From an uncultured Ectothiorhodospiraceae bacterium (lineage in GTDB: Bacteria > Pseudomonadota > Gammaproteobacteria > UBA9214): a stretch of 64,000 nucleotides of DNA. The notes under the pieces were generated by a model that saw nothing but the letters and a program-made list of their open reading frames with translations, searched no databases and was not told the origin of the DNA. This document shows positions 10,258-30,383 of the stretch, piece after piece. How positions within the stretch are numbered: the stretch's first letter is position 1; each line of letters opens with the position of its first letter. The position numbers and the translations under genes were made by a program. The DNA lies in contig CAZMAK010000001.1 of NCBI GenBank assembly GCA_964564245.1, forward strand, positions 48,989 through 112,988. Reading direction: 5' to 3'.

Positions 10258-10907
10258 CAGTCTTTCGTCTCGTGCGTATTGACGGTCACGGCGAGATTGA
10301 AATCCACAAACTGGGTCCTGTCGACCAGCGTGGTATTGATGATCCGCACATCCTGGATCTCCGGCTGCCGGTACATGCGCCTGACGAATTCCGACAGCGC
10401 GGAGTAGTCTTTCGCCTGGCCATGGATCTGCATCCGCGTCTCGATCTTCCAGGCCTCGTTGCTCTGCTTGCCATCGGTGGCCGGAATGACGATGAAATAG
10501 CCGTTGCTGGCCGTCTCCGGCCTGTGCTCGACCACGCTCCCGGCCCGGTTGAAATCCCAGGACAGGAACCAGACATCGCCTTCCACCATGGCCCGGTCGA
10601 CCGCCTCGAACATGGCGGAGGCCACCGCGCCTCCGCGCAGCCCGCGCAGCAGCACCAGCCGGCTTTCCAGTTCGGCGCGTTTCCGGTCCAGCTGCGTGAA
10701 CCGCTCGCGCTGTTGCGCCGACACCGCCTGGCGCGCCTGCAGGCCGGCGATCAACCGTCCGGTCCTGATCGCCTGGTAATGCAGCACGCCCAGTGCCAGC
10801 AGCAGGACGACCACCGCCAGTGCGACCGCCACGCCAATATTGAGCGCCTTGCCCTGCAGCCAGATACGACTGCGATAGTCGGCGGGTATCAGGTCGATTT
10901 CAGCCAT
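10257..10907 (-). CDS. PilN-like inner-membrane pilus assembly protein
   Basis: N-terminal IDLIP motif (like the INLLP of PilN), then a TM and a coiled-coil. 8-nt overlap with the PilM-like gene. Confidence 0.6.
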   Translation of the reverse strand: MAEIDLIPADYRSRIWLQGKALNIGVAVALAVVVLLLALGVLHYQAIRTGRLIAGLQARQAVSAQQRERFTQLDRKRAELESRLVLLRGLRGGAVASAMFEAVDRAMVEGDVWFLSWDFNRAGSVVEHRPETASNGYFIVIPATDGKQSNEAWKIETRMQIHGQAKDYSALSEFVRRMYRQPEIQDVRIINTTLVDRTQFVDFNLAVTVNTHETKD

Positions 10908-15476: not shown

Positions 15477-18400
15477 TCACGGCGTGCACTGGATCTGGAT
15501 GTTGTCGAACCAGACTTCATCAGCCCACCCCAGCGTGGAAGAGCTGAGCAGCCGGATGGCGGTCGTACCCGAAATATAGGCACTGATATCCTGGCTGAAC
15601 GACCGGTAGCCGTAATCCGTACCCCAGCCCTGGAAGCGGGTGAGTTCGGTCCACGGCCCCGCCGACCCGTTGCTGGACACCTGCAGGGCCACATAATCGC
15701 TGCTGGTATCCAGCTGGTTGCGGCGATACTGCAATGACAACGTAGCCGTGGTCGCACCCGCCAGGTTGGCCTCGCGCAGCACACCCTCACCACCCCCGTC
15801 GTTATCCCGCACGCGCAGCTGGTTGGTCCCCGGCGTGGCGCTGGCGGTCGAATCGGCCCCGACCCATTCATCACCCGACTGCGCACCGTCTGCCTCGTTG
15901 ACCTCCTGCCAGTCGCCGGTCCAGCTAAGTGTGCCGTCATTGCCGGAATAGTTGTGTGCATTGAAGTCGTCGCGGTAGGTGCCACTGCACCCTCCGCCAC
16001 CGCCGCCACCGCCACCGCCGCCACCGCCACCGGTCGGTGGCACCTGGTCGGCATCCACCAGCACGATACCGCGCGGACGGCTCAGGCCGGAGGAGACGAT
16101 GGTCTCCACGTTGCCGCCGTCGGGATCGGAGCGCTGCACCCGCTGGTTGAGCGCATCGACCCAGTAGATCCGGTCGTGGTCCGCATCGTAGGCGATGTCC
16201 TGTGGCGCGTTCAGCCCGGTCACGATGGTTTCCATGTTGCTGCCGTCGAGGTTGGCGCGCCTGATCCAGTCGTTGCTGGCCCCGCCGGTCCAGTACATCT
16301 TGCCGTTTACCAGGTCCAGCGCACTGCCGACGGCGCCGGTCGGCCCGGTCGTGAGCGTGGTCACGGAGCTGCCATTGACTTTCATGCTCGATACCCGGCC
16401 ACTGCCGAACTCGGTCAGGTACATCTTGCCTGCGGACTTGTCCAGGCTGAGATAGGACGGCCGGTTCAGGGTATTGTTGACGAGCGTGGCGCCGCTGCCA
16501 TCGAGGTTGGCGCTCATGACCCGGCTGGAACCGTTGTCGTGGGTCCAGTACATCTTTCCGCCGGCCACATCCAGCTTGATGTCGAAGGTCACGTAGGCAT
16601 CATTATAGACGACCTCGCTGTTGCTGCCGTCCAGGTTCGCGCGCCGGATCTGGTAATTGTTGGTCCAGTAGAGCTTGCCGTTGACGGTGTCGATATCCAG
16701 CCCGGTCGGGCGGTCCAGCCCGGTCAGTACATCCTCCACATCGCTGCCGTCCTCGTCCGAGCGCTGGATCTTGTTGGCGACATCATCGGTCCAGTACACC
16801 TTCTTCGGCGGGACGGCCGGCACTCCGTCCATGCCCCACTGGATGGCACGCTGCACCAGCAGGCGGCCGTTGTTGTTGAGGTAGTCCCAGTTGAACTTGC
16901 CGGCCCGCCCGACCGGGACCGAGATGATACGAGCAACTGCATTACCACCGCCGAACATCTGTGCACCGGCTTCGATGGCCGAGAGTCCGGTGGCCCCGTT
17001 CAGACGGCCTAACGCCTGCAGGCCCGGCGCCGGGTTGGCGGTGACGGTCGCACCCTCCATAGCGAGGTTCCCGAGCGGGATCACGCCGAGCGGGAACAGC
17101 GCGGTGATGAACTGGGTGTTATCGGCGATCCCGATACTGTCGGTGACGGTGTAGCTGCCAGGATCGGCCACCCCGAGATTATCGTACTGCTCGGCCGGTT
17201 CGGTGATGACGGCGATGGGCGCCCTTTTCAGCCGGTTGCCAAGCGTGGCATCCGCCACGGTGTTGGAAACGTACACGGCATCGTTAGCCCCCATGGCAGC
17301 ATTCATGGTGGACTGGTCGACTCCATCGTCGATCAGTGTCACCACGTAGCCCCAGGACTCGAACAGGGTTTTGCGGGTGATATCCGCGGCGGCGGGAGCG
17401 GCCGCGTTCCCGACCACCAGCAGCAGGCGACCGCTGCCCTGTGGCAACTGGCAGACCACCCCGCATTCGCAGGCAAAGGTCAGCGTGAGTTGCGGGTGCT
17501 GCGCCGCAGCGGGGCTGTCGCTGCTGGTGAAGTCGATATCGCCGGCATTGCCACCGCCCTCGCGTAACAGGAAACCAAAGTTGGGGGCACCATCCAGCCA
17601 GTCCTGGACCTGTGCAGTGACATCCCACTCGTACCAGCCAGGCGCCATGGTGGGCAGGGTTACGCTGTCAATGACCGCGGCATCATAGTCACCGCCGGGG
17701 TTATTCCAGGCGGTCAACCCATCGTAGCTCTGGTAGGTCACACCCGCACCGGGCGGTGGCACCTGGTTGTCAAAGCTGCCTTCCACCCAGGCATGGGTAA
17801 CCCGGTGCAGATCAAGCCGGCCGTTGGACACACCGGAGCCGCCTTCCAGGTACAGACCCAGGTGGGCATCGGTGATGCGCGCGCCGGGCGGCAATACCTC
17901 CAGCGCAAAGCGCAGCAGCACATTGCGGTCATTCTTGATGTTCAGAATGGAGGAAGCACCGAAATTCGTGTTCTTGTGGGCACCGGCCCAGACAAAGGCA
18001 TCCTGCAGCTCGGCACCCGGCTGCAGGGTCGCCGAACTGACCGGCTGATAGAGCGGAATATCGTTACGAACGATGGTGTAGCTGGCACCACTGTCCAGCG
18101 TACCGGTTGCGGTCACCGCGGCGCGGTTGGACAAATTGCCATCCGTATACCTGACCTCCAGGTATGGCCGGTGACTGGCATCGCTGTCTTCCTTGCTGGC
18201 GAACTCCGTGGTATCCGTGCCGAGCAGCGTGGAAGACACGATAAGTACGCCGTAGTTCGGCTGCGCGCCACTGACCCAGCCCTGCACCAGCGCGGTCAGG
18301 TTGACATCGGCATACTGATCCTGCGGCGTGCCGGCCGGGATGCTGGCGACCGTCGAGGCATCGAAACTGGTACCGATGCTGTTCCAGGTCACCGTGGCCT

Positions 18401-18983
18401 CGTCCCAGGACGCGGTCACGCGGTGCACTGTCACCGGCAAGGTGTGTTTGAACCGGGTGACATACCAGTGCGCCACGGCGGACACGATCGTGGCACTGGC
18501 CGGGATGCCGGCATTCTCGATGTCGAAGCGGTAGTAGGGCCGGTCGTAGTTGCCGCCGAGCAGGTTGCTTTCCAGGCGCAGCGTGCCGTCGCTGCCGTGG
18601 TTGGCGTTGCCGTTGTTCTTGTCGATCCAGGCATCGTCGCTGACCGGCACACTGACGTTCGAGATCGTACTGCCCACCTTGTTGACAGTGATGGTGGTCG
18701 AATAGTGATGGGCGCCGAACGGCACGCTGGACAGACCGGTATAGGGACCGCAACCGGCTGTATCGATCTGCTGCAGGGTATGTTGCAGGCCGGCCCTGGC
18801 GACGTACTCCGCCTGCGTGTGCCCGGCCACGGTGCCGGTGGCATTGAGTTCGACTGCAGAGCCATGATTGATCATGAAGGCGACCACGGCAACCAGTGCG
18901 ATCAGCAGCACCACCGGCAGCAGCACGAAACCACGCCGGTCGTTTGCACAGGCCACACGCCGTGTCGATCTGACTCGACTCAC
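15477..18983 (-). CDS. giant minor-pilin/adhesin fusion: GspK/PilX-like N-terminus, two carbohydrate-binding-like domains, YWTD beta-propeller, Gly14 linker, C-terminal lectin-like domain
   Basis: N-terminal RRGFVLLPVVLLIALVAVVAF is a pseudopilin-type helix lacking Glu5, as in GspK. Two copies of a beta-sandwich module ending W(D/V)E(A/G)T/S..W.N. Six YWTD/YWT(N/H) repeats (YWTDDVANKIQRSD, LYWTNNYQIRRANLDGSN, MYWTHDNGSSRVMSANLDGS and others), as in LDL-receptor class B propellers. Gly14 tract. Stop overlaps the upstream pseudopilin start. Confidence 0.7.
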   Translation of the reverse strand: MSRVRSTRRVACANDRRGFVLLPVVLLIALVAVVAFMINHGSAVELNATGTVAGHTQAEYVARAGLQHTLQQIDTAGCGPYTGLSSVPFGAHHYSTTITVNKVGSTISNVSVPVSDDAWIDKNNGNANHGSDGTLRLESNLLGGNYDRPYYRFDIENAGIPASATIVSAVAHWYVTRFKHTLPVTVHRVTASWDEATVTWNSIGTSFDASTVASIPAGTPQDQYADVNLTALVQGWVSGAQPNYGVLIVSSTLLGTDTTEFASKEDSDASHRPYLEVRYTDGNLSNRAAVTATGTLDSGASYTIVRNDIPLYQPVSSATLQPGAELQDAFVWAGAHKNTNFGASSILNIKNDRNVLLRFALEVLPPGARITDAHLGLYLEGGSGVSNGRLDLHRVTHAWVEGSFDNQVPPPGAGVTYQSYDGLTAWNNPGGDYDAAVIDSVTLPTMAPGWYEWDVTAQVQDWLDGAPNFGFLLREGGGNAGDIDFTSSDSPAAAQHPQLTLTFACECGVVCQLPQGSGRLLLVVGNAAAPAAADITRKTLFESWGYVVTLIDDGVDQSTMNAAMGANDAVYVSNTVADATLGNRLKRAPIAVITEPAEQYDNLGVADPGSYTVTDSIGIADNTQFITALFPLGVIPLGNLAMEGATVTANPAPGLQALGRLNGATGLSAIEAGAQMFGGGNAVARIISVPVGRAGKFNWDYLNNNGRLLVQRAIQWGMDGVPAVPPKKVYWTDDVANKIQRSDEDGSDVEDVLTGLDRPTGLDIDTVNGKLYWTNNYQIRRANLDGSNSEVVYNDAYVTFDIKLDVAGGKMYWTHDNGSSRVMSANLDGSGATLVNNTLNRPSYLSLDKSAGKMYLTEFGSGRVSSMKVNGSSVTTLTTGPTGAVGSALDLVNGKMYWTGGASNDWIRRANLDGSNMETIVTGLNAPQDIAYDADHDRIYWVDALNQRVQRSDPDGGNVETIVSSGLSRPRGIVLVDADQVPPTGGGGGGGGGGGGGGCSGTYRDDFNAHNYSGNDGTLSWTGDWQEVNEADGAQSGDEWVGADSTASATPGTNQLRVRDNDGGGEGVLREANLAGATTATLSLQYRRNQLDTSSDYVALQVSSNGSAGPWTELTRFQGWGTDYGYRSFSQDISAYISGTTAIRLLSSSTLGWADEVWFDNIQIQCTP
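15991..16034 (-). repeat. (GGN)14-15 trinucleotide tract encoding a poly-Gly linker
   Basis: Forward strand reads ccTCCGCCACCGCCGCCACCGCCACCGCCGCCACCGCCACC. Protein has TGGGGGGGGGGGGGGC. Confidence 0.8.
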
Positions 18984-19939
18984 AGCGCACCCCCGACCTG
19001 TACCCGGGTATCCAGGCTGACGCTCCGGCCACTGACGGGATCGGTCAGCACCAGCGAGATGGTAACGAGCACCGCGCCGGCGGCGGTCGCCGGCAGACGC
19101 TCGACACGAAACCCGCTGACCTGATCGGCAATGGCGGATTCGATGAAATCGCGCCCGTCCACGACGCCGCTGCCATCCACATCCCAGGGCACCGGCTGAC
19201 GGCGGATCAGCTGTGTACCCTTCAGGTAAAACACCACCGGGTCGAGCCAGTCCTCGTTGCTGGCGCCGTCCTCGTCATCGTCGCTGCTGCTGCCCTCGTC
19301 GACCGTCCCGTCCGCGTCATCGTCGACACCGCAGATGCCCGGACAGCCGTCACCGTTGAGATCAGCACCGGGGTCCTCGTCGGTGTTGCTGTCGTTGTCG
19401 TCGTCGATCCCGTTGACCGGATCGAGGTTGGCGGTCGCCGACTCGTCGTCCGAGTCCGCGGCCCCGTTATCGACCCTGCCGTCCCCGTTATCGTCGATCA
19501 GGTAGATCCCGGGCGCCGCGTCGTTGGTCCAGTCGGCCGGCGGGTCCTCGTCGAAACGGCCGTCGCCGTCATTGTCCGCATCGGGCGTGCCGTTGCCGTC
19601 CAGGTCGGTAACATGATCGAGCGTCACCGCGACCACATTGTTGATGTTCTCCGGGTAGGCGGTCGCGGTATCGTCGTTGAGCGGGACCAGCAGGTGCGGA
19701 CTGCGACCGACCGCCTGCACGATCTGGTCCATGGCAAAGCGCGCATCGCGGTTGAGCGCACCGGTCTCCGAAACCGAGTCGAGGGTATCGAGCACCTGGC
19801 CGGTGACGCCGTTCAGGGCGGCAAGCAGTAGCGCGGACAGGGCCAGCGCCAGCAGCAGTTCGACGAGGGTAAAACCGCGCTGGCAGGCAGACCCCGCCCG
19901 GCTGGAAGCGGCGGGCGAGGGCAATATCGGGCTAGTCAT
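18980..19939 (-). CDS. GspJ/PilW-like minor pilin with an Asp-rich thrombospondin-type-3-like calcium-binding repeat insertion
   Basis: Prepilin motif QRG|FTLVELLLALALSALLLA after a 21-aa leader. Central region has 9 or more DxDxDG/DxDGDG-type repeats (DLDGNGTPDADNDGDGRFDED, DDNGDGRVDNG, DDDADGTVDEG). ATG at 19939 overlaps the upstream gene stop by 8 nt. Confidence 0.65.
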   Translation of the reverse strand: MTSPILPSPAASSRAGSACQRGFTLVELLLALALSALLLAALNGVTGQVLDTLDSVSETGALNRDARFAMDQIVQAVGRSPHLLVPLNDDTATAYPENINNVVAVTLDHVTDLDGNGTPDADNDGDGRFDEDPPADWTNDAAPGIYLIDDNGDGRVDNGAADSDDESATANLDPVNGIDDDNDSNTDEDPGADLNGDGCPGICGVDDDADGTVDEGSSSDDDEDGASNEDWLDPVVFYLKGTQLIRRQPVPWDVDGSGVVDGRDFIESAIADQVSGFRVERLPATAAGAVLVTISLVLTDPVSGRSVSLDTRVQVGGAL

Positions 19940-20423
19940 GGGCACTGCGCAGGGTCTCCAGTGCCGTGTCGCCGATCTCCACCCGCAGCCAGAGCAGGTC
20001 CGCCTCGGTGCCGGTAAACGGGTCAGCATCGCCATCCGCGTTGTCGCTGTCGTAACGCGACAGGTAAACATTGCGGGTCACCGTCCTGCCGTCCTGGAAC
20101 GTGACCGTGTCACTGTAACTGCCCGGCGTGACCCGGCTGCCGGCCGCCGTCGCGGCCGCATCCAGCGCGGCAAACGGCTCTGCCAGCAATTCCTCCATCC
20201 GCCCGGCCACCGCAAAGTGATCCTCGACCCGGTTGGCGTGCGCCCCGGCAGCGGCTTCCCCGGGTGACAGGGCCTCCAGTGCCGGCGCCAGCGCCAGCAT
20301 GATCAGCACGATCGCAATCAGCACCTCGACATAACTGATGCCGGCCATGCGGGCGCAACCGGTTTTACGCACCCTGGCCGGGCGTCTCCCGCACGCCGGC
20401 CGCCACGTCGTTACCCGGTTCAT
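19932..20423 (-). CDS. GspI/PilV-like minor pilin
   Basis: Prepilin-like G|ISYVEVLIAIVLIMLALAP with Glu at +5. The ATG forms an ATGA overlap with the stop of the upstream H-like pilin gene. The track ORF extends further upstream. Confidence 0.5.
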   Translation of the reverse strand: MNRVTTWRPACGRRPARVRKTGCARMAGISYVEVLIAIVLIMLALAPALEALSPGEAAAGAHANRVEDHFAVAGRMEELLAEPFAALDAAATAAGSRVTPGSYSDTVTFQDGRTVTRNVYLSRYDSDNADGDADPFTGTEADLLWLRVEIGDTALETLRSAHD

Positions 20424-20962
20424 TGCACGCTCACCCGGCCGCTGCTGCCGTCCAGGGTCAGTACCCGCTGCCGGCCGGCGATCCTGAACACGAGGCTGGC
20501 CTGCTCCAGGAACACCGGGTACGGTTTGCGGCAGTACGGTGTACCGTGGCCGTCGAACAGCGTTTCTCCGGTGCTCGAACAACTGCCGTGGTATCGGGCG
20601 CTGCTGCTGACCGAATCCACGGCCAGGTACGGCTGTGCCGCCAGGTCCACCGTGTAGGGCTGCCTGCTGAGCGGGTCACGCATGTCATACACCGGTGTCG
20701 GCGGGCTGGTAGTCATGTCGGCACTGAACAGGCGGATGGCCGGCGGGTCCGTGGTGATGGCAAAACCATGGGGAATGCCGGTGCGGATCGCCTCGTTGCG
20801 TGCGAAGCGGATGGCGTCGGCAAAGGCCTGGCTGGCGGCATCCAGCCGCTCCGGACCGGTCGACGACAAAAAAGGGATTGCCGCACTCGCGGCAATCCCC
20901 AGTATTGCGATGACAACCAGCAGCTCTACAAGAGTCAGGCCATGACTACGCAACGCCCGCAT
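20420..20962 (-). CDS. GspH/FimT-like minor pilin
   Basis: MRALRSHG|LTLVELLVVIAILGIAA prepilin signal. Size and position after the major pilin fit GspH/FimT. Confidence 0.65.
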   Translation of the reverse strand: MRALRSHGLTLVELLVVIAILGIAASAAIPFLSSTGPERLDAASQAFADAIRFARNEAIRTGIPHGFAITTDPPAIRLFSADMTTSPPTPVYDMRDPLSRQPYTVDLAAQPYLAVDSVSSSARYHGSCSSTGETLFDGHGTPYCRKPYPVFLEQASLVFRIAGRQRVLTLDGSSGRVSVQ

Positions 20963-20995
20963 CGGTACCGGTTCTCATGCATGCGAGGCTGCGGG

Positions 20996-21574
20996 TCAGT
21001 AGGCGTCGAACTGGGTGCCGCTACTGTCCTTGGACGTGTCATCGGCGATGAACTTGCCGGAGGTGGTGTCATAGCGCCAGCCCCCGCCCGCAGCGGCAGC
21101 GGTCATGTCCAGATCCCCGGTGGTCTCGATGGCCACGGTACCGTTGTGGGTCACCGGATTGGCCGGCAGGTCACCCTTGATGTAGGGGCCGAACGGATAT
21201 TCCACGGCAGCCGTATCCGTTGTATCGGAAATGCTGCAGGTCTGACCGGTGGAATTGGAATAGTATTTCAGCTGCTCGACCACCGCTGCCTGGCTGTCGG
21301 CGGCGCCACTGCCGACCGTACCACCGGTGCAGGTACCGCCACTCGAGGCCACCGCACCCGGGAACGCCCCGCTGTGCTGCTGGGTATACAGGTCAATGGC
21401 GCTGCGGATGCCGGACAGGTCGGAACGCAGTGCCGAGGCGGCGGCATCACCCGTCGAGGAGGCGAACTGCGGCACCACGATCGCGGCCAGGATGGCCAGG
21501 ATGATGGCGACGATCAACAATTCAACAAGGGTAAAACCTTCCTGGTTTGCCCTGTTCCCGTGTAGCGTAGTCAT
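20996..21574 (-). CDS. major type IV pilin / pseudopilin (MshA/GspG-like)
   Basis: Leader MTTLHGNRANQEG then FTLVELLIVAIILAILAAIVVPQF. C-terminal Cys pairs. AGGAG RBS 7 nt before the ATG at 21574. First gene of the G-H-I-J-K series. Confidence 0.75.
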   Translation of the reverse strand: MTTLHGNRANQEGFTLVELLIVAIILAILAAIVVPQFASSTGDAAASALRSDLSGIRSAIDLYTQQHSGAFPGAVASSGGTCTGGTVGSGAADSQAAVVEQLKYYSNSTGQTCSISDTTDTAAVEYPFGPYIKGDLPANPVTHNGTVAIETTGDLDMTAAAAGGGWRYDTTSGKFIADDTSKDSSGTQFDAY

Positions 21575-21882
21575 GGTTAACTCCTGTTCGCCCATATAGT
21601 ATGGTTTGGACAAACGGGGTATCGGCAAGTACCCGGGCGGCTTTAAAATATCAGGTTAATTAAGAGCTTCCAGCCACCCACCGCCATGACCGATGCTCTC
21701 CCGGCGAGCAACCGGATTTAACCATATAAACAGTGGGTTATCTATCTTCCGGACCTGGCTGACGGTGGCAAATCGCTTCAGGCTCGCCAGCTTGCAGAGC
21801 TGTGTGCGGGTAACTACTATAGCCCTGCATACGAGAAAACATATTCTTGCGCATACACAATAATGATTACGGAGGCTCTGTC

Positions 21883-22608
21883 ATGCAATTATTACGCACT
21901 GGCTGCGTGGTTCTCGCCTGTCTCGCAGGAGTTTCTCTAGAGGCCAACGCCCTCACCATTGACTTCGGCACGGTTAAGGATGCCAACGTGCAAAGCGACA
22001 GTTCCGGTCCGCTCGGGGGTGGCAGCGCAATCCTCGATCCCTTTACAAACAGTAGCTACAGCATCGATTCCTACATCGGATTTGATATCGCTGACTTTCA
22101 GTCGCTCGGAAACCCGGCTGTCGACGTTTCCCTCGATCTGTATGGCTTTGCTGCAAGAACCTCGCTGGTCCTGAATATCTATGGACTGAACGATCTGGTA
22201 TCTCCCGGCTGGTCAGAAAGCACCATCGACTGGACCAATGCACCCGGAATACAGTCAGATTCGATTGATCCTGCCACAACGACCCTGTTGTTTTCGGGGT
22301 CGGTCAGCTATACAGCGAATAACGTCATCAGCTTCAGTGACAGTTCTTTTGCTGATTTCATTAACAGCGACACAGATGGCCTGGTCACCTTCATTCTCAC
22401 GCAGCCAACCGCTACCAGCGAAAACCACGCATTCAGCAGCAAGGAATCCTCTGGCAATCCCGCTATCGGTCTCCCGGGTGACTATGCGCCCACACTGCAC
22501 ATTACAGCAGCGCCCGTCCCCGCCGCTGTCTGGCTGTTCGGTTCCGGCCTGCTGGGGCTGATCGTTGTGGCGCGGCGCCGGCACCGCGCCTCAGTGCACC
22601 GCCTGTGA
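21883..22608 (+). CDS. PEP-CTERM-anchored secreted protein with a carbohydrate-binding-like beta-sandwich domain
   Basis: Signal peptide MQLLRTGCVVLACLAGVSLEA. Domain ending WSESTIDWTNAPG is the same module as in the giant pilin-adhesin. C-terminus PVPAAVWLFGSGLLGLIVVARRRHR matches the PEP-CTERM sorting-signal architecture (VPxx, TM, RRR). GGAGG RBS before ATG 21883. Confidence 0.6.
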   Translation: MQLLRTGCVVLACLAGVSLEANALTIDFGTVKDANVQSDSSGPLGGGSAILDPFTNSSYSIDSYIGFDIADFQSLGNPAVDVSLDLYGFAARTSLVLNIYGLNDLVSPGWSESTIDWTNAPGIQSDSIDPATTTLLFSGSVSYTANNVISFSDSSFADFINSDTDGLVTFILTQPTATSENHAFSSKESSGNPAIGLPGDYAPTLHITAAPVPAAVWLFGSGLLGLIVVARRRHRASVHRL

Positions 22609-23715
22609 CAGCTTGAAGATCGGCAGGATCAGCGAACTCACGATCAGACCGACCACGGCACCCATGACGATCAGCATGACCGGTTCCACCATGCGCGAGA
22701 AGGTTGCCAGGTTGCGCGCCAGTTCGCGTTCGTAATAGAGCGCGATCCGCCCCAGCACCAGCGGCAGCTTGCCGGTTTCCTCCCCGGTGGTCACCATCTG
22801 GCTCACCATCGGTGGAATGAAACTCGCGGTCTGGAATGCAGCGGAAAAACCGCCGCCCTCGTTGACCGTTTCCTCCAGCCCGGTCAGGAAGCGGCGGAAC
22901 TCCCGGTTGGCAACCACCTCACGGCAGGCGGACAGGGCGTCCGGCACGCTCACGCCATGTTCCAGCGACAGGCCCAGTACCCGCAGCGACTGGATCAGGT
23001 ATATCCGGGTATAGATGTCGCGCAGGCCGAAGGCCGACAGCTTGAACCGGTCGAGCGCGGCACGACCGGCGTCACTTCGAAGCCACCACACCAGCAGGGC
23101 CACTGCAACCGCCACGCCGGCGCCCAGTTCCGGCCAGTACCGGACAAGGAAATGACTGAACCGCATCAGTACCAGCGTGGTGACCGGCAGCTTGTCGGCA
23201 ATGCTGGCAAACATGACGGCGAACTTCGGGAACACCTCCATCAGCACGAACACCACGACAAACAGCGAGAATGCGATCAGGAAGGCCGGGTAGGACAGGG
23301 CGGAAGTCACGGTACGGCGCAGCTCCATCCGCTTCTCGTCCATGTTTTTCAGCTCCAGCAGCACACTGTCCAGAAAGCCGCCCTGCTCCGCGGCCGCGAC
23401 CAGCGTGACGTAACTGACCGGGAACATGTCCGGGAAGTGGGTCAGTGCCCGGGAAAAGGAATTCCCGCTGGTCACCTGTTCCTGCAGCCGGTTGATGATG
23501 GCCGCCATGGCCGGATTCGCGACCTGTTTGCCCAGCGCGTTCAGCGCGGCATGCAGGGGGGTGCCCGTCTCCAGCAACAGCGACAGCTGCTCGGTAAAGA
23601 AGATACGGTCCTGCACACCGGGCCTGTGTCGCGCAAACAGTCGCGTGCGCGGTTTCGGAGTTGCCAGTGCGGCCTTCCGGGCAGTCTCCCGCAACGCGGT
23701 TATTTCAAGCGCCAT
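22591..23715 (-). CDS. type II/IV secretion platform protein (GspF/PilC/MshG family)
   Basis: Two T2SS-F repeats and three TM segments. Conserved C-terminus GE(E)TGKL...L...YYERE. Confidence 0.85.
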   Translation of the reverse strand: MALEITALRETARKAALATPKPRTRLFARHRPGVQDRIFFTEQLSLLLETGTPLHAALNALGKQVANPAMAAIINRLQEQVTSGNSFSRALTHFPDMFPVSYVTLVAAAEQGGFLDSVLLELKNMDEKRMELRRTVTSALSYPAFLIAFSLFVVVFVLMEVFPKFAVMFASIADKLPVTTLVLMRFSHFLVRYWPELGAGVAVAVALLVWWLRSDAGRAALDRFKLSAFGLRDIYTRIYLIQSLRVLGLSLEHGVSVPDALSACREVVANREFRRFLTGLEETVNEGGGFSAAFQTASFIPPMVSQMVTTGEETGKLPLVLGRIALYYERELARNLATFSRMVEPVMLIVMGAVVGLIVSSLILPIFKLSQAVH

Positions 23716-23725
23716 GCGGGTGACT

Positions 23726-23895
23726 CCTGGGAGCCTGTCGGGCCTGGGCGATCGTAGCGAGCCGTGTGGGAGAACGAGGCCATTTTTCCGATCGTTCGAG
23801 GAGAATAGCCGTCGCTATTTGACGAGGAGGAGCGGAACAATGGACCGCTGTCCCACCGGCGCAGTAGATCAGTCCCAGGTCCGACAGGCTCCTAG
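23726..23895. mobile_element. MITE/REPIN-like element (about 170 bp) with 21-bp terminal inverted repeats
   Basis: CCTGGGAGCCTGTCGGGCCTGG (23726-23747) and its near-perfect inverted copy CCAGGTCCGACAGGCTCCTAG (23875-23895) bound the ATPase-platform intergenic region. 19 of 21 positions match. The left repeat contributes part of the platform gene RBS. The right repeat contains the ATPase stop codon. Confidence 0.55.
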
Positions 23896-25931
23896 ACATT
23901 GATGACACGGGAAACCTCCTCGATCGTGGTTTCACCCGCCCGCACGTGATCCAGGCCATCGACAAACAGATTGCGGAAATCCCGCTCATGTAGATGCCGG
24001 TGCAGCTCGTCGCGCCCCGGACTGGTGGTGATCAGGCGTTGCAACGATTCATCACATTGCAGCACCTCGTGTATACCCATGCGCCCGCGATAGCCGGAAT
24101 CGTAGCATTCGTTACAGCCACGCCCGCGCGCCAGCTGCACCTGCCCGTCCCAGCCGAACCGGCTGATCAGGCCCGGTTCGGCCACATAGCGCGTCTTGCA
24201 GGCCGGGCAGATGACGCGGACCAGCCGTTGCGCAACCACGCCGATCAGTGCGGAGGACAGCAGATACGGTTCCACGTCCATATCGATCATGCGCGTGATT
24301 GCGCCGATCGCATGATTGGTGTGCAGGGTCGACAGCACCAGATGGCCGGTCAGGGCCGCCTGCACGGCGATTTCCGCCGTCTCGCGGTCACGGATCTCAC
24401 CCACCATCACGATATCCGGATCCTGGCGCAGCGTGTGGCGCAGGATGGTGGAGAAGGTCAGGCCGATGTGCTCATGCACCTCGTTCTGGTTGACCACCTC
24501 GATCTGGTATTCGACCGGATCCTCGATGGTCACGATGTTCTTTTCCATGCTGTTGAGGTAGTTCAGCGCGGCATACAGCGAGGTGGTCTTGCCGCTGCCG
24601 GTCGGTCCGGTGACCAGGATCAGTCCGTGGCTGCTGTCGAGCAGGGACTTGAACAGGGTCAGGTTGCCCGCGCTCATGCCGAGCTTGTTGACGTCCAGCA
24701 GCGAACGGTTCTTGTCCAGCACGCGCAATACCACCTTCTCCCCGAACAGGCCCGGCAGTGAACTGAAGCGCAGGTCCACCGCGCGACCCTGGGTACGTAC
24801 CTGGATACGGCCGTCCTGCGGCATGCGACGCTCGGCGATATCCAGGTTGGCCATCACCTTGAGACGGGAGACAATGGCCGGGTGGTATTCGGCACTGAGC
24901 GTGGTGACCTCGTACAACACCCCGTCGATACGGAAGCGTACGCGGGTCCGGTTTCGTGACGGCTCGATGTGAATGTCGCTGGCGCCGTCACGGATCGCGC
25001 GCTGGACCAGCGAATTGACCAGGTTGACGATCGGACTGCCTTCCGCCATCTCGTCGATCGCGGCGTAGTCGTCGCGGGCAATATTCTCGACCACGGTAAA
25101 GTCGGCATCGACATCGCCGATCAGTTCAATGGTGTCCACGTTACCTGCGTAGGCATCGTTGAGGGCGTTCAGGATGTCCTCGCGCCGTGCAATCACCGGC
25201 TGCACGCGGCAACCGGAAAGCTTCTCGACCTCGGCGAACGCGGGCATGGCCTGCGGGTCCGAGGTGGCCAGGAACAGCACATCATGTATCTTCTGCAGCG
25301 GCAGCATCTGCAGGCGTTTCGCAACCCGCATGTCGATGATTCCCGTCACGGCAGGATCGTAGATACCGGCACGCAGGCGCACGCAGGGAATCGACAGCTG
25401 TTCACCCAGCGCGGTCAGCACGTCCTGATCGGACACCCACCCCTTGTCGATGATGATCTGCCCCATGCGCCGCGACGTCCGCTTCTGCAGCTCGATCGCC
25501 TCGGCAATACGTTCCTCCGTGATCAGACCCCGTTCCAGCAGGATATCTCCCAGGCGTTGTGTCCCGCCGCTGCGCGTAGTGCGTTGCACGGGGTCCACGT
25601 CCACCATGGGGACATAACTGGAAAACGAGGTAAGCGTCAGGATATCCAGCACGATCGTGTTGGCTCGCGCCAGCTTCAGCCAGCCGCCCTGCCGTACCGC
25701 CTGTTCCTGGATGTCTACCAGCGCCTCCAGCGCCGCACTGTTGAGCAGCTTGACCGATCCCAGGTCCACTACGAGCTGTGCATCGCCCGGTCGCATGCTT
25801 TCGTTCGCGGCGGCCGTCAGCGCCCGGATATCCTCATCACTGAGCAACGAGGTACGTGGCACCAGCTGGGTCATCACGCCCACGCGGGTACGCAACACCT
25901 CGCTCGTCAGATATTCGGGTGAAACACTCAT
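23892..25931 (-). CDS. pilus extension ATPase of the GspE/MshE family with N-terminal STAS-like domain and MshEN-type c-di-GMP-binding motifs
   Basis: Walker A GPTGSGKT, Asp box, His box, CPACK Zn motif. MshEN motif RLGDILLERGLITEERIAEAIELQKRT at about residue 118. The preceding 110 aa (LVVDLGSVKLLNSAALEALVDIQEQAVRQGGWLKLARANTIVLDILTLTSF) align with SpoIIAA-type STAS domains. 679 aa, versus about 575 aa for canonical MshE. Confidence 0.9.
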   Translation of the reverse strand: MSVSPEYLTSEVLRTRVGVMTQLVPRTSLLSDEDIRALTAAANESMRPGDAQLVVDLGSVKLLNSAALEALVDIQEQAVRQGGWLKLARANTIVLDILTLTSFSSYVPMVDVDPVQRTTRSGGTQRLGDILLERGLITEERIAEAIELQKRTSRRMGQIIIDKGWVSDQDVLTALGEQLSIPCVRLRAGIYDPAVTGIIDMRVAKRLQMLPLQKIHDVLFLATSDPQAMPAFAEVEKLSGCRVQPVIARREDILNALNDAYAGNVDTIELIGDVDADFTVVENIARDDYAAIDEMAEGSPIVNLVNSLVQRAIRDGASDIHIEPSRNRTRVRFRIDGVLYEVTTLSAEYHPAIVSRLKVMANLDIAERRMPQDGRIQVRTQGRAVDLRFSSLPGLFGEKVVLRVLDKNRSLLDVNKLGMSAGNLTLFKSLLDSSHGLILVTGPTGSGKTTSLYAALNYLNSMEKNIVTIEDPVEYQIEVVNQNEVHEHIGLTFSTILRHTLRQDPDIVMVGEIRDRETAEIAVQAALTGHLVLSTLHTNHAIGAITRMIDMDVEPYLLSSALIGVVAQRLVRVICPACKTRYVAEPGLISRFGWDGQVQLARGRGCNECYDSGYRGRMGIHEVLQCDESLQRLITTSPGRDELHRHLHERDFRNLFVDGLDHVRAGETTIEEVSRVINV

Positions 25932-28135
25932 TGGATGCAGCGCCGGGACCCGCCGGTATGCAGGGACTCCAGGTAGCCCGTCAGGGGTGACGGCCTGTCG
26001 ATGCCGTATCCCTGCAGATAGTCCACGCCCATCCGCGTCAACTGTTCGGCAATGGCGTCGTTTTCCACGTATTCGGCAATCGTCTTCAGTCCCATGACGT
26101 GACCGATCTGTATGACGGAAGCCACCATGGCGGAAGACACCGGGTCCTCGAGTATCTGCCGCACGAAGGAGCCGTCGATCTTCACGTACTCGACCGGCAG
26201 GCCCTTCAGGTAACTGAACGAACTCAATCCGGTCCCGAAGTCATCCAGCGAGAAACGGCAACCGATCGCCTTCAGTTGCCCGATGATCGCTAGCGCCGCC
26301 TCCCGGTTACCGATCGCGGCCGTTTCGGTCACCTCGAAACAGAGACAGTCCGGTGCAATGCGGTACTCACCGATCTTTCCGGTAATGTAGGTCGCAAGCT
26401 CCAGGTCGGCAAGCGACTGTCCGGACAGGTTGATGGAGACGATGCCCTGCCCCGCACTCCCGGCGATGCCGGCCTCGGCCAGGCTGGCCAGGGTTGCATT
26501 GATCACCCAGCGATCGATGGACGGCATCAGGTTGAACTGTTCCGCCGCCGGCAGGAAGCTGTCCGGGCTGAGCAGGTGACCGTCCTCGTCGACCAGCCGC
26601 ATCAGTACCTCGAAATGGAACTGTTCGCCGTTCGCGGAAACCGGCCGGATGGTCTGGCAATGCAGCATGACCCGGTCTTCGCGCAATGCCCTCTGGATAC
26701 TCGCCACGCACTGGATGTTACTACGCCGCGTCGCCAGCCCGGTGTCATCCTCACCAAATGCCTGGATCTGGCCGGTGCCCAGCTCCTTGGCGGCCGCGCG
26801 CGCGAGCTCGGCTGATTCCATCGCCTCACCGGCACTGGCGGTCTGCGGCCCGACCATGACCACACCGGTAGCCATCTGCAGGTCGATGGAGGCGGAATCC
26901 AGGTGTATCTGGTCACGCTGCACATGATCGCGCAACATGTACGCGACCCTCACACCCTGATCGATCCCGGTCCTTTCCAGCAGTACGCCATAGCGGCCCT
27001 CGCCGAGATACCCGATGGTATCCGTACCGCGCAGCTTGTTGCGCAACTTCTCGCCGACGATACGTATGACGGTGTCACCGGCCTTGCGGCCGTAGGTCTC
27101 GTTGATGACCTGCAGGCGCCCGATGTCGATATTCAGCAGACAGTGGTGCAGACCTTCACCGCTGGCATCCTGTATGGCCCGCTGCAGCACGGTCTCGAAG
27201 GCATGCGGGTTCATCAGTCCGGTCAGCGTATCGTAGTTGGCCTGCGTGATCTTGGCGATTTTCCGGCCCATGACCTTGAGCAGGTTGCGGTCGCTGTTGA
27301 AAAAGTCCGGCCGGTAGATGTGGTTAAGACAGACCAGCACCCCCTCGATCTCGCCACGGGCGTTGACTACCGGGCAAGACAGCAGCTTGTAGGGGATATC
27401 GAGGGAGAGTTCCTCACGTCGCTGGTCATAGAGTTCATTGATCAGCAGGCAATCGGGCTGTGTAATGGCATACGGCAGGAACTTCCCGGCCAGCACCTCG
27501 AACAGCTCATCGGGATGCAGTACCGGATCGCGCGGGCCGGCGGCATACAGGGTGCGCCTCCGGTCCGGGTAAAACAGCGCCACCATGTCGACATCGAGAT
27601 ACTCGACGTAGCTTTCGACCAGCGATGTCAGTGCGACATTTTCCTGCTCGATGCTGGCGCTCTCTTCCACATCGTAGACCAGGTTCAGCTCGTCGTAGCG
27701 ACCGGCCAGTTCCCTGGCCATGGTATCCAGTTCGACAGTCAGGCGGTATTCCTTTTCCACACACCCCACGATACAGGCGAAGGCCGCGTTCACGGCGGCA
27801 TCCAGCCCGTCGGCGGGCAGCTCGTCACCGGGATCACCCGTGCCGATGAGCCATCCTGCGCACCTGTCGGCCGGTGTGCGGATTTCCATCAGGCAGGTGA
27901 TGATCCCGTCGTTGCGTTCCACCACAAGCCGCCGGCCGGTAGCCGGCACTGCATGGATTCCCGCCGCATCGACGTTGAAGCGTGTCCGGGAAATCTGCGC
28001 AGCGTTGTCCGTATCACCGTCCAGTACCAGCCCGGCACAGTCACACACGTAGAGATCCAGGCCACGCGGCAGTAGCTGGCGCAGCAGCGCGAAATAGTTC
28101 CCTAAACCGATCTGGCTCAACGGACCTGCCGGCAT
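25928..28135 (-). CDS. c-di-GMP phosphodiesterase: sensor (GAF/PAS-like), degenerate GGDEF, EAL
   Basis: EAL-domain motifs EVLMRL, DDFGTG, KIDGSF. The GGDEF position reads GEGRYGV, which is degenerate. ATGA-type overlap with the ATPase start (25928/25931). Confidence 0.85.
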   Translation of the reverse strand: MPAGPLSQIGLGNYFALLRQLLPRGLDLYVCDCAGLVLDGDTDNAAQISRTRFNVDAAGIHAVPATGRRLVVERNDGIITCLMEIRTPADRCAGWLIGTGDPGDELPADGLDAAVNAAFACIVGCVEKEYRLTVELDTMARELAGRYDELNLVYDVEESASIEQENVALTSLVESYVEYLDVDMVALFYPDRRRTLYAAGPRDPVLHPDELFEVLAGKFLPYAITQPDCLLINELYDQRREELSLDIPYKLLSCPVVNARGEIEGVLVCLNHIYRPDFFNSDRNLLKVMGRKIAKITQANYDTLTGLMNPHAFETVLQRAIQDASGEGLHHCLLNIDIGRLQVINETYGRKAGDTVIRIVGEKLRNKLRGTDTIGYLGEGRYGVLLERTGIDQGVRVAYMLRDHVQRDQIHLDSASIDLQMATGVVMVGPQTASAGEAMESAELARAAAKELGTGQIQAFGEDDTGLATRRSNIQCVASIQRALREDRVMLHCQTIRPVSANGEQFHFEVLMRLVDEDGHLLSPDSFLPAAEQFNLMPSIDRWVINATLASLAEAGIAGSAGQGIVSINLSGQSLADLELATYITGKIGEYRIAPDCLCFEVTETAAIGNREAALAIIGQLKAIGCRFSLDDFGTGLSSFSYLKGLPVEYVKIDGSFVRQILEDPVSSAMVASVIQIGHVMGLKTIAEYVENDAIAEQLTRMGVDYLQGYGIDRPSPLTGYLESLHTGGSRRCIQ

Positions 28136-28527
28136 TGCCGCTCTCCTCCGGAATCGTCGTTGCTGAAATATTCCTTCAGCCTGGCCAGCAGCCGGCGGAT
28201 GCTTACCGGCTTCTCCAGAAAGTCCAGGTTGCCTATGCCCTGTGACCAGCGGCGGAGTTCGTCTTCCGCGCGCGCGGACAGGACATAGATGCCGAAGCTG
28301 CGCCCGGGCATCTCCTCGGCGATCCGGTCACACAGGTCCCTGCCGCTCATCTGCGGCATATCGATGTCCGTGATCAGCAGATCCGGGGGATTGCCGCGGA
28401 TTTTTTCCAGGGCCTGGCAGCCGTTACAGGCCTCGTCCGTCGAATAGCCGGCCGCGTCCAGCGCCAGCTTCAGCACCCGGATCACATGTGGTTCGTCGTC
28501 AACGAGCAGAATTCGTTTCCCGGTCAT
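28117..28527 (-). CDS. single-domain response regulator (receiver only)
   Basis: ILLVDDE...DLLITDIDMPQMSG...K receiver motifs. No output domain. Overlaps the kinase stop and the PDE start. Confidence 0.8.
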   Translation of the reverse strand: MTGKRILLVDDEPHVIRVLKLALDAAGYSTDEACNGCQALEKIRGNPPDLLITDIDMPQMSGRDLCDRIAEEMPGRSFGIYVLSARAEDELRRWSQGIGNLDFLEKPVSIRRLLARLKEYFSNDDSGGERQCRQVR

Positions 28528-30383
28528 ACCGCCCGCCTCAGCAGTTCAGCTTCCTTGTCGAACTCGATGACAAATTCCGATCCTTCGCCAGGCGCGCTGT
28601 TCACCGTCAGTGTCCCGTGGTGAAGCTGGATGATCTCGCGCGCCAGCGCCAGCCCGAGACCATGCCCGCTCCTGCGGGACACCTCTTCGTTCTGCGAACG
28701 ATAGAACTTGTCGAATATCTTCTCCTGCTCCTCCGGCGAGATACCGATCCCCTTGTCCCGGACGGATACTCGCACGGTCCGTTCCGTTTCCTCGACGGCC
28801 ATCCTGACCATGCCGTGCTCGTCGCTGTACTTGATCGCATTGGTCAGCAGGTTATTGACAGCGATACGGATCAGGTCCTTGTCCAGCGCCACCGGGCTGA
28901 TCTCGTGGGGCAGGTCGAGCTGGAAATCGATGTGCTTTTCCTGCCCCCCGCGGGCACAGGCATTGAAGGTGTCCTCGAGCAGGTCCCGCAGCTTCACCCG
29001 CTTGCGCTCGATGGATATGCTGCCGGTCTCGATCTTGGTGATGCTGAGGATGTTATTGATCAGCAGGGCAAGCCGTTCGACCTCGTCATGAATGATATTG
29101 GCCGCCTCGATGCGGAACTGTTCGCGTCCGCCCTCCGCGCCCTGCAGCATCTCGCTGTACATCGCCAGGACATTCAGCGGCGTCTTCAGTTCGTGTGAAA
29201 CGTGCGCAACGAACTCTCCACTGCTGTCCCGCGCCAGTTTCTCCGCGGTGATGTCACGGAACACGACCAGGGTACCGGGCGGCTCGGCGGTATCCTGCGG
29301 GGAAAACAGCGGGTAGGGGGAAATCGCGAAGGTGCGGCCCGGCAGCGATCCCGGCGTGTATTCGAGCGCATCGCTGTGATACCCGTGACTCCTGCGACCA
29401 CCCTGGCCGGAAAGAAAGGCAATGATCCCGGGATCCTTGCACCATTCCACCGGCTTCTTGCCGACGATATCCCGGTTGCTGACATCCAGCAGCTGTCCAA
29501 CCCTGGCATTGGCGAGACTCACGGTACCGCTTTCATCCAGCACCAGGACTGCCTCCGGGAACGATTGCAGCACGGACTCGACACGCGAACGCCGGTAACC
29601 AAGCAGCTTTGCCGAGGTCTCCAGCTGTGTACGATCCTCCTCCAGCTCGCCGATCCGGTGTTGAGACGCATCGATGAAGCGGTTGAAACGCTCCATGAAA
29701 TCCTGCAATTCCGCACTCGCGGCAAGCTCCACGCTGCCGGCAAGCCCGTTGCCGCCCATCAGTGTGTCCAGTCGCGTATTGACCTCCCGGACGGGACGCA
29801 CCTCCCTGCGCAACAGAAGATAAAACAGCGGGGTCAGCAAGAAGATCGGCAGGGCGAAGCTCGCCACAAATTCCAGCTGGTCCGGCCTTGGTCCGACGAC
29901 AGGCTGCAGGTATCCGAGACGGACATACCCGGCAAGCTGGTCATGCTCGAACAGCGGGGCATGAAATTCGATCATCTTCCGGTTACTGCCGGGCATCACC
30001 AGACGGCGTTGCCCGACCCAGCCGGCGGGCTCGGTTGGCAACGATGCGGCAGGGACGACGACATCGTTTCCGGCGATCTCCTCCACCATGCGGCCCCCGG
30101 CATCCACGATCTCCAGATAGGCCAGGTCCGAGGTGCCGCGTATCTGCTGCAGGATGGAAAGGATCCCGGCCTTGCCGGTCTCCGGGACAAACCGGGCGTA
30201 GGGGATACGCGTCAGGATGCGGACCAGGCTGGCGCCCTGGCTTTGTATGTTGTTTTCCTCACTGCGCTGCTGGTAGCGAAACAGCAACAGGACGGTGATC
30301 GCGATCACCGCCAGCGACGCAACGATCATGGTCAGCCCGAGTCGCTCTTTTCTCCATGCGCTCGCCAACCTGCTGAGAGGCAT
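28524..30383 (-). CDS. sensor histidine kinase (periplasmic sensor, HAMP, PAS, HisKA, HATPase)
   Basis: H-box VSHELKTPLN. G-boxes DKGIGI and GHGLGL. Two TM segments flanking a roughly 150-aa periplasmic region. Confidence 0.85.
   Translation of the reverse strand: MPLSRLASAWRKERLGLTMIVASLAVIAITVLLLFRYQQRSEENNIQSQGASLVRILTRIPYARFVPETGKAGILSILQQIRGTSDLAYLEIVDAGGRMVEEIAGNDVVVPAASLPTEPAGWVGQRRLVMPGSNRKMIEFHAPLFEHDQLAGYVRLGYLQPVVGPRPDQLEFVASFALPIFLLTPLFYLLLRREVRPVREVNTRLDTLMGGNGLAGSVELAASAELQDFMERFNRFIDASQHRIGELEEDRTQLETSAKLLGYRRSRVESVLQSFPEAVLVLDESGTVSLANARVGQLLDVSNRDIVGKKPVEWCKDPGIIAFLSGQGGRRSHGYHSDALEYTPGSLPGRTFAISPYPLFSPQDTAEPPGTLVVFRDITAEKLARDSSGEFVAHVSHELKTPLNVLAMYSEMLQGAEGGREQFRIEAANIIHDEVERLALLINNILSITKIETGSISIERKRVKLRDLLEDTFNACARGGQEKHIDFQLDLPHEISPVALDKDLIRIAVNNLLTNAIKYSDEHGMVRMAVEETERTVRVSVRDKGIGISPEEQEKIFDKFYRSQNEEVSRRSGHGLGLALAREIIQLHHGTLTVNSAPGEGSEFVIEFDKEAELLRRAV

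Follow-up and report, generated by a model that had tools for sequence, protein, structure and literature searches.

What does a STAS domain do at the N-terminus of a PilB/GspE-type ATPase which already carries a motif for cyclic diguanylate (c-di-GMP)? This question is raised by a gene in a 64,000-nucleotide stretch of DNA, hereafter the window, from an uncultured Ectothiorhodospiraceae bacterium (GenBank assembly GCA_964564245.1, contig CAZMAK010000001.1, positions 48,989 to 112,988 of the forward strand). The gene (23892..25931, minus strand), delimited by its open reading frame (ORF) and its Pfam and NCBIfam domains, encodes a 679-aa protein of four parts, i.e., a STAS domain (residues ~11–110), a disordered linker, a tandem MshEN c-di-GMP motif (residues 126–178), and an intact ATPase. 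The protein is an exact match to P0001 and has more than 100 full-length homologue clusters. Fused to the ATPase or encoded directly beside it, a STAS domain of this type recurs in distant phyla, behind a histidine kinase (HK) and a response-regulator receiver (REC). The reading that we favour, tentatively, is that the STAS domain is a regulatory subunit of the motor, relaying the state of the HK and REC, with the MshEN part reading c-di-GMP independently.

The N-Terminal STAS Domain

A first-pass annotation, made from the DNA letters, had placed a STAS domain in front of MshEN c-di-GMP motifs and a GspE/PilB-type ATPase, and this order is borne out by Pfam, NCBIfam, the motifs themselves, and a structural model. 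The first 110 residues do form a true STAS domain, with its core at residues 11–110 (25602..25901, minus strand). Pfam STAS (PF01740) matches residues 50–109 with 24.9 bits, above the gathering cut-off of 22.6, and Pfam STAS_2 matches residues 34–102 with 27.6 bits, just under its cut-off of 29.2. Since the single-sequence score is marginal, a STAS profile was built from 37 family N-termini (alignment A2). Searched against the sequences of the PDB, this profile matched TM1081 (E 3.9e-7) and SpoIIAA (6.6e-7 and 1.1e-6), and also TM1442 and RsbV.

An AlphaFold2 model made on A2 has a mean pLDDT (predicted local distance difference test) of 83, with block means of 88–96 over residues 11–110, whereas residues 112–125 are disordered. 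The modelled elements follow the order β1 12–17, β2 20–25, α1 32–46, β3 52–56, α2 65–80, β4 84–88, and α3 92–100, and the secondary-structure elements that the first-pass annotation had picked out map to β3 (LVVDL), α2 (SAALEALV...), and β4 (WLKLA). In a Foldseek search of the PDB, the top 17 matches are all single-domain STAS proteins, led by TM1081 (root-mean-square deviation, rmsd, of 1.5 Å over 101 columns) and RsbV (TM score 0.86–0.87), after which come SpoIIAA, RsbS, MlaB, and SLC26 STAS domains. Fold and element order are the same as in the anti-sigma antagonists, at an rmsd of 1.5–1.7 Å.

Within the family, G18, P25, D56, L57, G82, G83, and K86 of the STAS domain are invariant, and S65 and W84 nearly so (alignment A1). 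Ser65 (codon AGT, 25737..25739, minus strand) lies at the N-terminus of helix α2 and, by hidden Markov model (HMM) alignment to SpoIIAA, is the equivalent of the phospho-serine Ser58. The Ser/Thr phospho-acceptor position of partner-switching STAS proteins is thus present, with Ser65 as the site predicted by alignment. This serine is kept in all 14 fused sequences, in 25 of 29 stand-alone STAS sequences, and in at least 90% of alignment A1; four relatives have Gly instead. The motif around it reads NSAALE in the fused family and DSxGLE in the stand-alone proteins, the canonical form being DSSGLG.

The start codon of the gene is sound. Its ATG and the TGA of the gene upstream overlap in the sequence ATGA (caATGAgt), the next in-frame Met, M19, still lies ahead of the STAS domain, and the N-termini of homologues in alignment A1 coincide with that of the 679-aa protein, which is itself present in identical form on two other metagenome contigs. 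The STAS stretch has a GC content at third codon positions of 0.77 in frame, compared with 0.42 in frame 3. Relative to the closest loci, 30–33 of its 112 codons differ only synonymously, and substitutions per site are ~2.4 times as frequent at third positions as at positions 1 and 2. The possibility of a true start further downstream, or of a sequencing error, which the first-pass annotation had itself raised, is ruled out by the ATGA junction, the homologue N-termini, and this codon substitution pattern.

The MshEN and ATPase Parts

The linker (residues 111–125; 25557..25601, minus strand) shows pLDDT values below 50 for residues 112–125 and, in alignment A1, indels together with variable length and sequence. 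The tandem 24-residue MshEN motifs follow at residues 126–149 and 155–178 (25398..25556, minus strand), so that the first of them begins at residue 126 rather than at about residue 118, as had been estimated from the letters. Motif 1 is RLGDILLERGLITEERIAEAIELQ and motif 2 is RMGQIIIDKGWVSDQDVLTALGEQ, with the canonical 5-residue spacer between them. NCBIfam NF053729, the 53-residue MshE-type c-di-GMP motif, matches residues 126–178 with 64.7 bits against a cut-off of 38. The motif was defined as [RKPN]hGxxhhxx[GAS]hhxxxxhxxxhxx[QNKRYWST], present twice and joined by 5 residues (Wang et al. 2016, PMC5013675), and both 24-residue stretches match the relaxed form of that pattern. L127, G128, L131, Q149, R155, G157, I159, and Q178 are invariant in the family (alignment A1). 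By its sequence, the MshEN part is therefore a c-di-GMP receptor as so defined, and binding is predicted.

The C-terminal MshEN subdomain, or N1D (residues 180–262; 25146..25394, minus strand), matches Pfam PF05157 with E 8e-14, and the N2D and catalytic ATPase part (T2SSE, PF00437; residues 296–675; 23907..25046, minus strand) is found with E 1.8e-138. Its motifs are intact, i.e., Walker A (GPTGSGKT, 442–449), Walker B (IVMVGEIRD, 507–515), the His box (TGHLVLSTLH, 528–537), and two CxxC pairs (CPAC at 575 and CNEC at 606). The best PDB match is Geobacter PilB (E 4e-136 over residues 124–676). Since PilB aligns only from residue 124/125 on, the protein is indeed ~100 aa longer than usual motors, as the first-pass annotation had said. 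The ATPase reaches neither the GspE equivalog TIGR02533 (593.3 vs. 630.25 bits) nor the PilB equivalog TIGR02538 (567 vs. 675.65 bits), suggesting that it belongs to a separate clade related to both.

The Fused Family

A full-length search returned more than 100 clusters at the 90% identity level. The best 120, which are 61–100% identical to the query, are nearly all ~681 aa long, and nearly all carry precomputed STAS (PF01740 and/or PF13466), MshEN, and T2SSE matches. Their source names are 'PilB', 'ATPase, T2SS/T4P/T4SS family', and, once, 'STAS domain-containing protein', and one cluster (P0119) is named after Candidatus Thiodiazotropha. The fusion is present in at least 20 species-representative genomes, a lower bound since the 263-aa single-protein query reaches close relatives only, and all of these are uncultured sediment Gammaproteobacteria, including Ectothiorhodospiraceae, Woeseiaceae, and Woeseia sp. 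To these clusters and genomes can be added 48 confirmed fusions among the top 150 matches of the STAS profile search given below.

The window and 13 further fused loci share one gene order, namely HK (PAS-HisKA-HATPase), REC, a GAF-GGDEF-EAL protein, the STAS–ATPase, GspF, four pilins, and a giant CBM96 protein, and the order continues with an HDOD gene (in some loci), a membrane GGDEF gene, PilM, PilN, PilO, and the secretin. Locus L016 is an exception, in which the head of the cassette and the first pilin are kept and are followed directly by PilMNO and the secretin. In the closest species-representative genome (L006, 10001–12050), the STAS–ATPase gene appears as a pair of ORFs, of 445 and 328 aa, and the giant protein is likewise in pieces; these broken genes reflect either an assembly frameshift or a pseudogene. 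A divergent subfamily, P0201 (L026/L027), 46% identical in the ATPase part, encodes STAS–MshEN–T2SSE as an orphan gene outside any pilus cassette, adjoining a HisKA-REC-nucleotidyl-cyclase gene and an FHA gene.

The STAS Domain as a Separate Gene

The STAS profile was also used in an exhaustive HMMER search over 1.84 billion representatives (50% identity), which gave 314 matches at E ≤ 1e-10, and the best 150 of these were classified. Besides the 48 confirmed fusions, where the STAS domain is succeeded by MshEN or ATPase sequence, there are 65 short or ambiguous fragments (23 of them with the GGW hallmark of the fused family), 17 proteins of other architectures, and 20 stand-alone STAS proteins of 111 aa with a conserved xRSF(L) tail. 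The other architectures include FHA-STAS repeats, triple STAS with TPR, HD-GYP-STAS (P0207), and GGDEF-EAL-STAS-MshEN (P0125), the last of which is possibly a frameshift fusion with the upstream phosphodiesterase. P0246, P0217, P0269, P0204, P0219, and P0252 comprise FHA-STAS-FHA-STAS proteins of ~590 aa and triple-STAS proteins with TPR of 710–1587 aa.

Each stand-alone STAS gene with readable context lies directly upstream of an MshEN-T2SSE gene. Locus L028 reads GGDEF, STAS, ATPase. L029–L031 read HK, REC, GAF-HD-GYP, GAF-GGDEF, STAS, MshEN-ATPase, PilT-like, GspF, pilins, and PilM, and L032 reads REC, HK, STAS, and a truncated gene. In L033/L034, from Pirellulaceae and Planctomycetales metagenome-assembled genomes, the order is REC, HK, STAS, MshEN-ATPase, GspF, and, further on, a secretin, and in L035 it is HK, REC, HD-GYP, STAS, MshEN-ATPase, GspF, pilin, PilO, and secretin. 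The STAS stop overlaps the ATPase start (ATGA or GTGA) in four of five split loci. In the split ATPases, which are 44–51% identical, the MshEN motifs stand right at the start.

Between L029 and the window, the cassettes are homologous and run collinearly, the ATPases being 50% identical over 569 residues (window residues 121–677), the kinases 31% over 603, the receivers 33%, GspF 30%, the pilins 35–39%, and the STAS domains 32% (window residues 13–107). An arrangement with STAS directly 5′ of the MshEN-ATPase, HK and REC before it, and GspF and pilins after it, defined in this work and not a family described so far, is found in the window and 13 fused loci, as well as in the split loci L029–L031, L032, L033/L034, and L035. 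In particular, HK and REC stand ahead of STAS in every fused cassette and in each of the four split lineages with visible upstream sequence, whereas the c-di-GMP enzyme of the cassettes varies among EAL, HD-GYP, and GGDEF and is missing from L033/L034 (Planctomycete) and L032. By the reasoning commonly applied to genes that occur both fused and split, the STAS domain and the ATPase are predicted to work together physically. As judged from these gene structures, the window protein would have come from two neighbouring genes of an older cassette, linked by translational coupling, that became fused, or else the two-gene form arose by fission; at the overlapping junction, a one-nucleotide change would suffice for fusion.

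The Role of the STAS Domain

The gene product would be the extension motor of a type IV filament machine, i.e., one similar to a type IV pilus (T4P) or a type II secretion system (T2SS), with an accessory STAS domain covalently joined to the N-terminus of its MshE/PilB-type ATPase. The STAS domain may bind the ATPase, in trans where the two are separate proteins and in cis where they are fused, thereby gating assembly or activity of the motor, and it would most likely relay the state of the co-encoded kinase and receiver. A relay from REC to STAS is suggested by the receiver itself, which, as a phosphorylated single-domain protein with no output domain, needs a protein target. The MshEN part would read c-di-GMP set locally by the upstream GAF-GGDEF-EAL protein, a probable phosphodiesterase, and by the membrane GGDEF protein, a probable cyclase. 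The motor could then integrate an extracytoplasmic signal, via HK, REC, and STAS, with c-di-GMP, via MshEN. That there is a second regulatory input besides c-di-GMP, as the first-pass annotation had proposed, is well supported by the conservation of the arrangement and by its split-gene versions. Precedents for a STAS protein with a target other than a sigma factor are HsbA with the cyclase HsbD (PMC5085249), HmpV (PMC6495340), and MlaB, the STAS subunit of the MlaF ATPase. The wider proposition, that HK, single-domain REC, STAS, and MshEN-ATPase form an unrecognised multi-phylum signalling route acting directly on the extension motor of type IV filaments, seems to us possible but rather doubtful.

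Several points weigh against a relay through the STAS domain. The link between receiver and STAS rests only on conservation of gene neighbourhood, and the receiver may act on the phosphodiesterase or on another target instead. The conservation of Ser65 also fits a phosphorylation switch operated by an unlinked kinase, and the ancestral form could be either the fused or the split one. To these may be added the orphan subfamily P0201, which is neither a clean fit nor a clean contradiction.

The phosphorylation switch would, in its classical form, be phospho-STAS partner switching, where Ser65 is phosphorylated by an RsbW/SpoIIAB-type kinase and dephosphorylated by PP2C, both encoded elsewhere in the genome, and its state decides release or inhibition of the motor. 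The equivalence of Ser65 to Ser58 of SpoIIAA, at the same place at the N-terminus of helix α2, and its conservation speak for this mechanism, as do the DSxGLE motif of the stand-alone proteins, close to the canonical one, and the nature of the top matches in sequence and fold, which are anti-sigma antagonists that can be phosphorylated. In Nostoc, moreover, an HmpU/V/W switch controls T4P-dependent motility (PMC6495340). However, the scanned ORFs of the window contain neither an RsbW-type kinase (HATPase_c_2 without HisKA) nor a PP2C/SpoIIE phosphatase, and none turned up within ~10 kb in any fused or split cassette examined; the only GHKL proteins among these are HisKA-containing histidine kinases. 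Both glycines of the canonical motif are also missing from the fused family, four relatives carry Gly in place of Ser65, and a Ser or Gly at a helix N-cap can be kept for structure alone. The partner-switching input that the first-pass annotation had envisaged thus finds no support in the gene context, although the conserved serine leaves room for phosphorylation, and we consider this mechanism unlikely. The cassette HK was also tried as a candidate STAS kinase on the basis of an HATPase_c_2 cross-match (32.8 bits) and was rejected, since it has HisKA with a canonical H-box and such GHKL cross-matches are usual.

A second alternative is a local c-di-GMP scaffold, in which the STAS domain docks the neighbouring phosphodiesterase and/or GGDEF cyclase on the motor, so that MshEN reads a private c-di-GMP pool. 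The STAS protein HsbA, which binds the cyclase HsbD (PMC5085249), provides a precedent. The phosphodiesterase gene is ATGA-coupled to the STAS–ATPase and conserved at that position in all fused cassettes, HD-GYP and/or GGDEF genes lie immediately upstream of STAS in split cassettes, and this STAS type is fused to GGDEF-EAL in P0125 and to HD-GYP in P0207. However, P0125 may be a frameshift artefact at the overlapping junction, L033, L034, and L032 have REC, HK, STAS, and ATPase with no c-di-GMP enzyme between, and the change of enzyme type from cassette to cassette is hard to square with a single conserved docking surface. A scaffold of this kind thus appears improbable, to about the same degree as partner switching.

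The STAS domain might instead be a constitutive structural subunit, which stabilises the hexamer of the ATPase or anchors it to the platform of PilM/PilN/GspF and carries no signal; MlaB for the MlaF ATPase and the N1E domain of GspE for GspL serve as models. Translational coupling and fusion suggest a fixed 1:1 stoichiometry, MlaB is among the fold matches, and the extra domain is N-terminal, where the platform-binding domains of GspE and PilB lie. However, the genes flanking the STAS domain are always for signalling (HK, REC, c-di-GMP enzymes) rather than for structure, a large majority of PilB, GspE, and MshE motors function without STAS, and the P0201 gene lies away from platform genes altogether. 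We regard a purely structural role as quite improbable.

Finally, an artefact, i.e., chance similarity, a mis-framed or non-coding upstream stretch, or a region wrongly joined through a sequencing error or wrong start, is rejected as next to impossible: it draws only on the Pfam scores lying so close to their thresholds (STAS barely above, STAS_2 below), and against it stand the recovery of the same protein on two other metagenome contigs, the more than 100 homologous clusters which share N-terminus and architecture, the agreement of profile, AlphaFold model, and fold search on STAS, the coding type of the substitution pattern, and an ATGA junction which leaves no space for an alternative upstream start, with M19 preceding the domain in any case.

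The Gene Cassette in the Window

Directly upstream of the STAS–ATPase gene, and translationally coupled to it through the ATGA junction, lies the gene for a protein with GAF, a degenerate GGDEF (GEGRY), and EAL (25928..28135, minus strand; Pfam and motif inspection), whose position is conserved in 14 fused loci. Its EAL motifs (EVL, DDFGTG, KID, EYVE, and QGY) are intact and its GGDEF is degenerate, suggesting that it is probably a c-di-GMP phosphodiesterase. Ahead of it are a single-domain REC of 136 aa (28117..28527, minus strand; Pfam Response_reg E 6.8e-24), conserved in fused and split cassettes, and a membrane sensor HK (28524..30383, minus strand; Pfam PAS-HisKA-HATPase_c, H-box SHELKTPL), which is collinear with the split-cassette kinase.

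Downstream, a GspF/PilC-type platform protein (22591..23715, minus strand) matches Pfam T2SSF with E 1.4e-52, NCBIfam GspF being below its cut-off. It is followed by four pilin/pseudopilin genes (18980..21628, minus strand), recognised by N_methyl motifs, GspG-/GspH-like matches, and synteny. Their maximal ORFs, all on the minus strand, are 20996–21628, 20420–20962, 19932–20582, and 18980–20071, and the true starts of the last two are probably downstream of the ORF starts. The fourth pilin (18980–20071) has a long Asp-rich region with repeated DxDxDG-type motifs (DNDGDGRFDEDP, DDNGDGRVDNG, DLNGDGCPG, etc.), which are similar to the calcium-binding type 3 repeats of thrombospondin. A small CBM96 protein with a PEP-CTERM-like C-terminus (...APVPAAVWLFGSGLLGLIVVARRRHR) is encoded on the opposite strand at 21847–22608 (plus strand), between GspF and the pilins; L001, though not L002, has a 226-aa gene at this position in the same orientation.

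The giant protein of 1168 aa (15477..18983, minus strand) has three CBM96 stretches and an LDL-receptor class B/beta-propeller region by Pfam, and also disaggregatase-related repeats. Its N-terminus is pilin-like, hydrophobic (RRGFVLLPVVLLIALVAVVAF), and GspK-like, and has no Glu5. Such a protein follows the pilins in 9 of 11 loci of one comparison set, and in L001 and L002 as well, with lengths of 1117–1520 aa in related cassettes. It is probably a filament-associated carbohydrate-binding adhesin, and it may sit at the filament tip. An IS200-like/Y1 transposase gene (PF01797; 14549–15328, plus strand) lies within the cassette, with the giant protein on one side and the HDOD gene on the other; it is possibly a REP-associated tyrosine transposase, and a weakly similar gene occurs elsewhere in L011.

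The HDOD protein (13525–14427, minus strand; Pfam) is followed by a membrane GGDEF protein (12185–13372, minus strand) with an intact GGDEF motif, found by Pfam and motif, which is probably a diguanylate cyclase and also precedes PilM in L001, L002, and L019. The cassette then continues, all on the minus strand, with PilM (10900–12036), PilN (10257–10907), PilO (9694–10257), a small ORF which is possibly PilP-like (9282–9857), and the secretin (7901–9385); PilM, PilN, PilO, and the secretin were assigned by Pfam and by synteny in L016. No gene for a retraction ATPase was identified among the window ORFs scanned.

The cassette is flanked on one side by a CHASE8-HAMP hybrid kinase with two REC and Hpt, plus a REC-GGDEF-EAL protein (57622–62363, minus strand), and on the other, directly after the secretin and an acyltransferase, by a hybrid HK plus REC-PAS (3696–6898, minus strand). 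The window holds a second, unrelated STAS domain, at the C-terminus of an ordinary SulP sulfate permease (43115–44953, plus strand; 45.6 bits), which is followed by a CLC channel gene. A sulfur globule protein (2863–3204, plus strand; PF17228, E 4.5e-19) suggests that the host is a gammaproteobacterium that oxidises sulfur, in line with relatives bearing the names Ectothiorhodospiraceae and Ca. Thiodiazotropha.

Significance

Control of T4P extension and T2SS-like machines is known mainly via c-di-GMP, through MshEN or through FimX with PilZ, and via polar-localisation factors. If the favoured reading is true, a STAS domain hard-wired to the motor, or coupled beside it, in distant phyla would be a new class of motor regulator, by which two-component signalling is linked directly to filament assembly. 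These motors would then be two-input devices reading an environmental signal and c-di-GMP, and, should the wider proposition hold as well, STAS proteins would form a general class of direct PilB/MshE regulators. The fused/split pair predicts that the STAS domain binds the ATPase, and that the receiver or the c-di-GMP enzyme binds the STAS domain. Motors of this type would also be a candidate target class for orphan STAS outputs, e.g., HmpV of Nostoc in the motility of cyanobacteria. Woeseiaceae and sulfur-oxidising Gammaproteobacteria, which are the hosts, occur in abundance in marine sediments, and the giant carbohydrate-binding protein of the filament suggests a possible role of the system in attaching to particles or polysaccharide.

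The architecture itself is already in databases, under one 'STAS domain-containing protein' name and as precomputed Pfam matches, without interpretation. The literature searched holds no description which links STAS to PilB, GspE, or MshE, and neither the MshEN paper (PMC5013675) nor a 2024 review of PilB mentions STAS. The motor family and the domain were already known, and what is new here is the conserved regulatory arrangement, with its fused and split forms across phyla.

Comparison with Known Systems

With MshE of the Vibrio cholerae MSHA pilus, PilB of Geobacter and Myxococcus, and PilF of Thermus, the window protein has in common the tandem 24-residue motifs with their 5-residue spacer, the N2D and catalytic domain with its Walker A and B motifs and His box, the tetracysteine site, and a GspF/PilC neighbour, whereas the N-terminal STAS domain of ~110 residues and the linker are extra. 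The anti-sigma-factor antagonists SpoIIAA, RsbV, and TM1081 resemble the STAS domain in fold, element order, and profile similarity, and in the serine at the phospho-serine position. However, what the STAS domain described here is fused to, or has as its direct gene neighbour, is a secretion-type ATPase and not an anti-sigma kinase, and its motif is NSAALE, not DSSGLG.

MlaB, which regulates MlaF, and the C-terminal STAS domains of SulP/SLC26 transporters are alike in that a STAS domain serves as an accessory or regulatory module of a transport machine, and both are among the fold matches. The partner ATPase of MlaB is, however, of the ABC class and not PilT/GspE-like, and the similarity is weaker than to the anti-sigma antagonists.

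The HsbA–HsbD pair of Pseudomonas aeruginosa and HmpU/V/W of Nostoc punctiforme, compared at the level of the STAS fold only, share with the present system a STAS protein with a non-sigma output. HsbA, through its binding to HsbD, feeds c-di-GMP signalling (PMC5085249). HmpV is the STAS output of a partner switch needed for T4P-driven motility, and its effector has been described as currently undefined (PMC6495340). Those systems differ from the cassettes described here in having a dedicated kinase and phosphatase (HsbR in the one, HmpW and HmpU in the other), with a STAS protein which is neither fused nor adjacent to a pilus ATPase. HmpV is the nearest functional precedent for the STAS domain of these motors.

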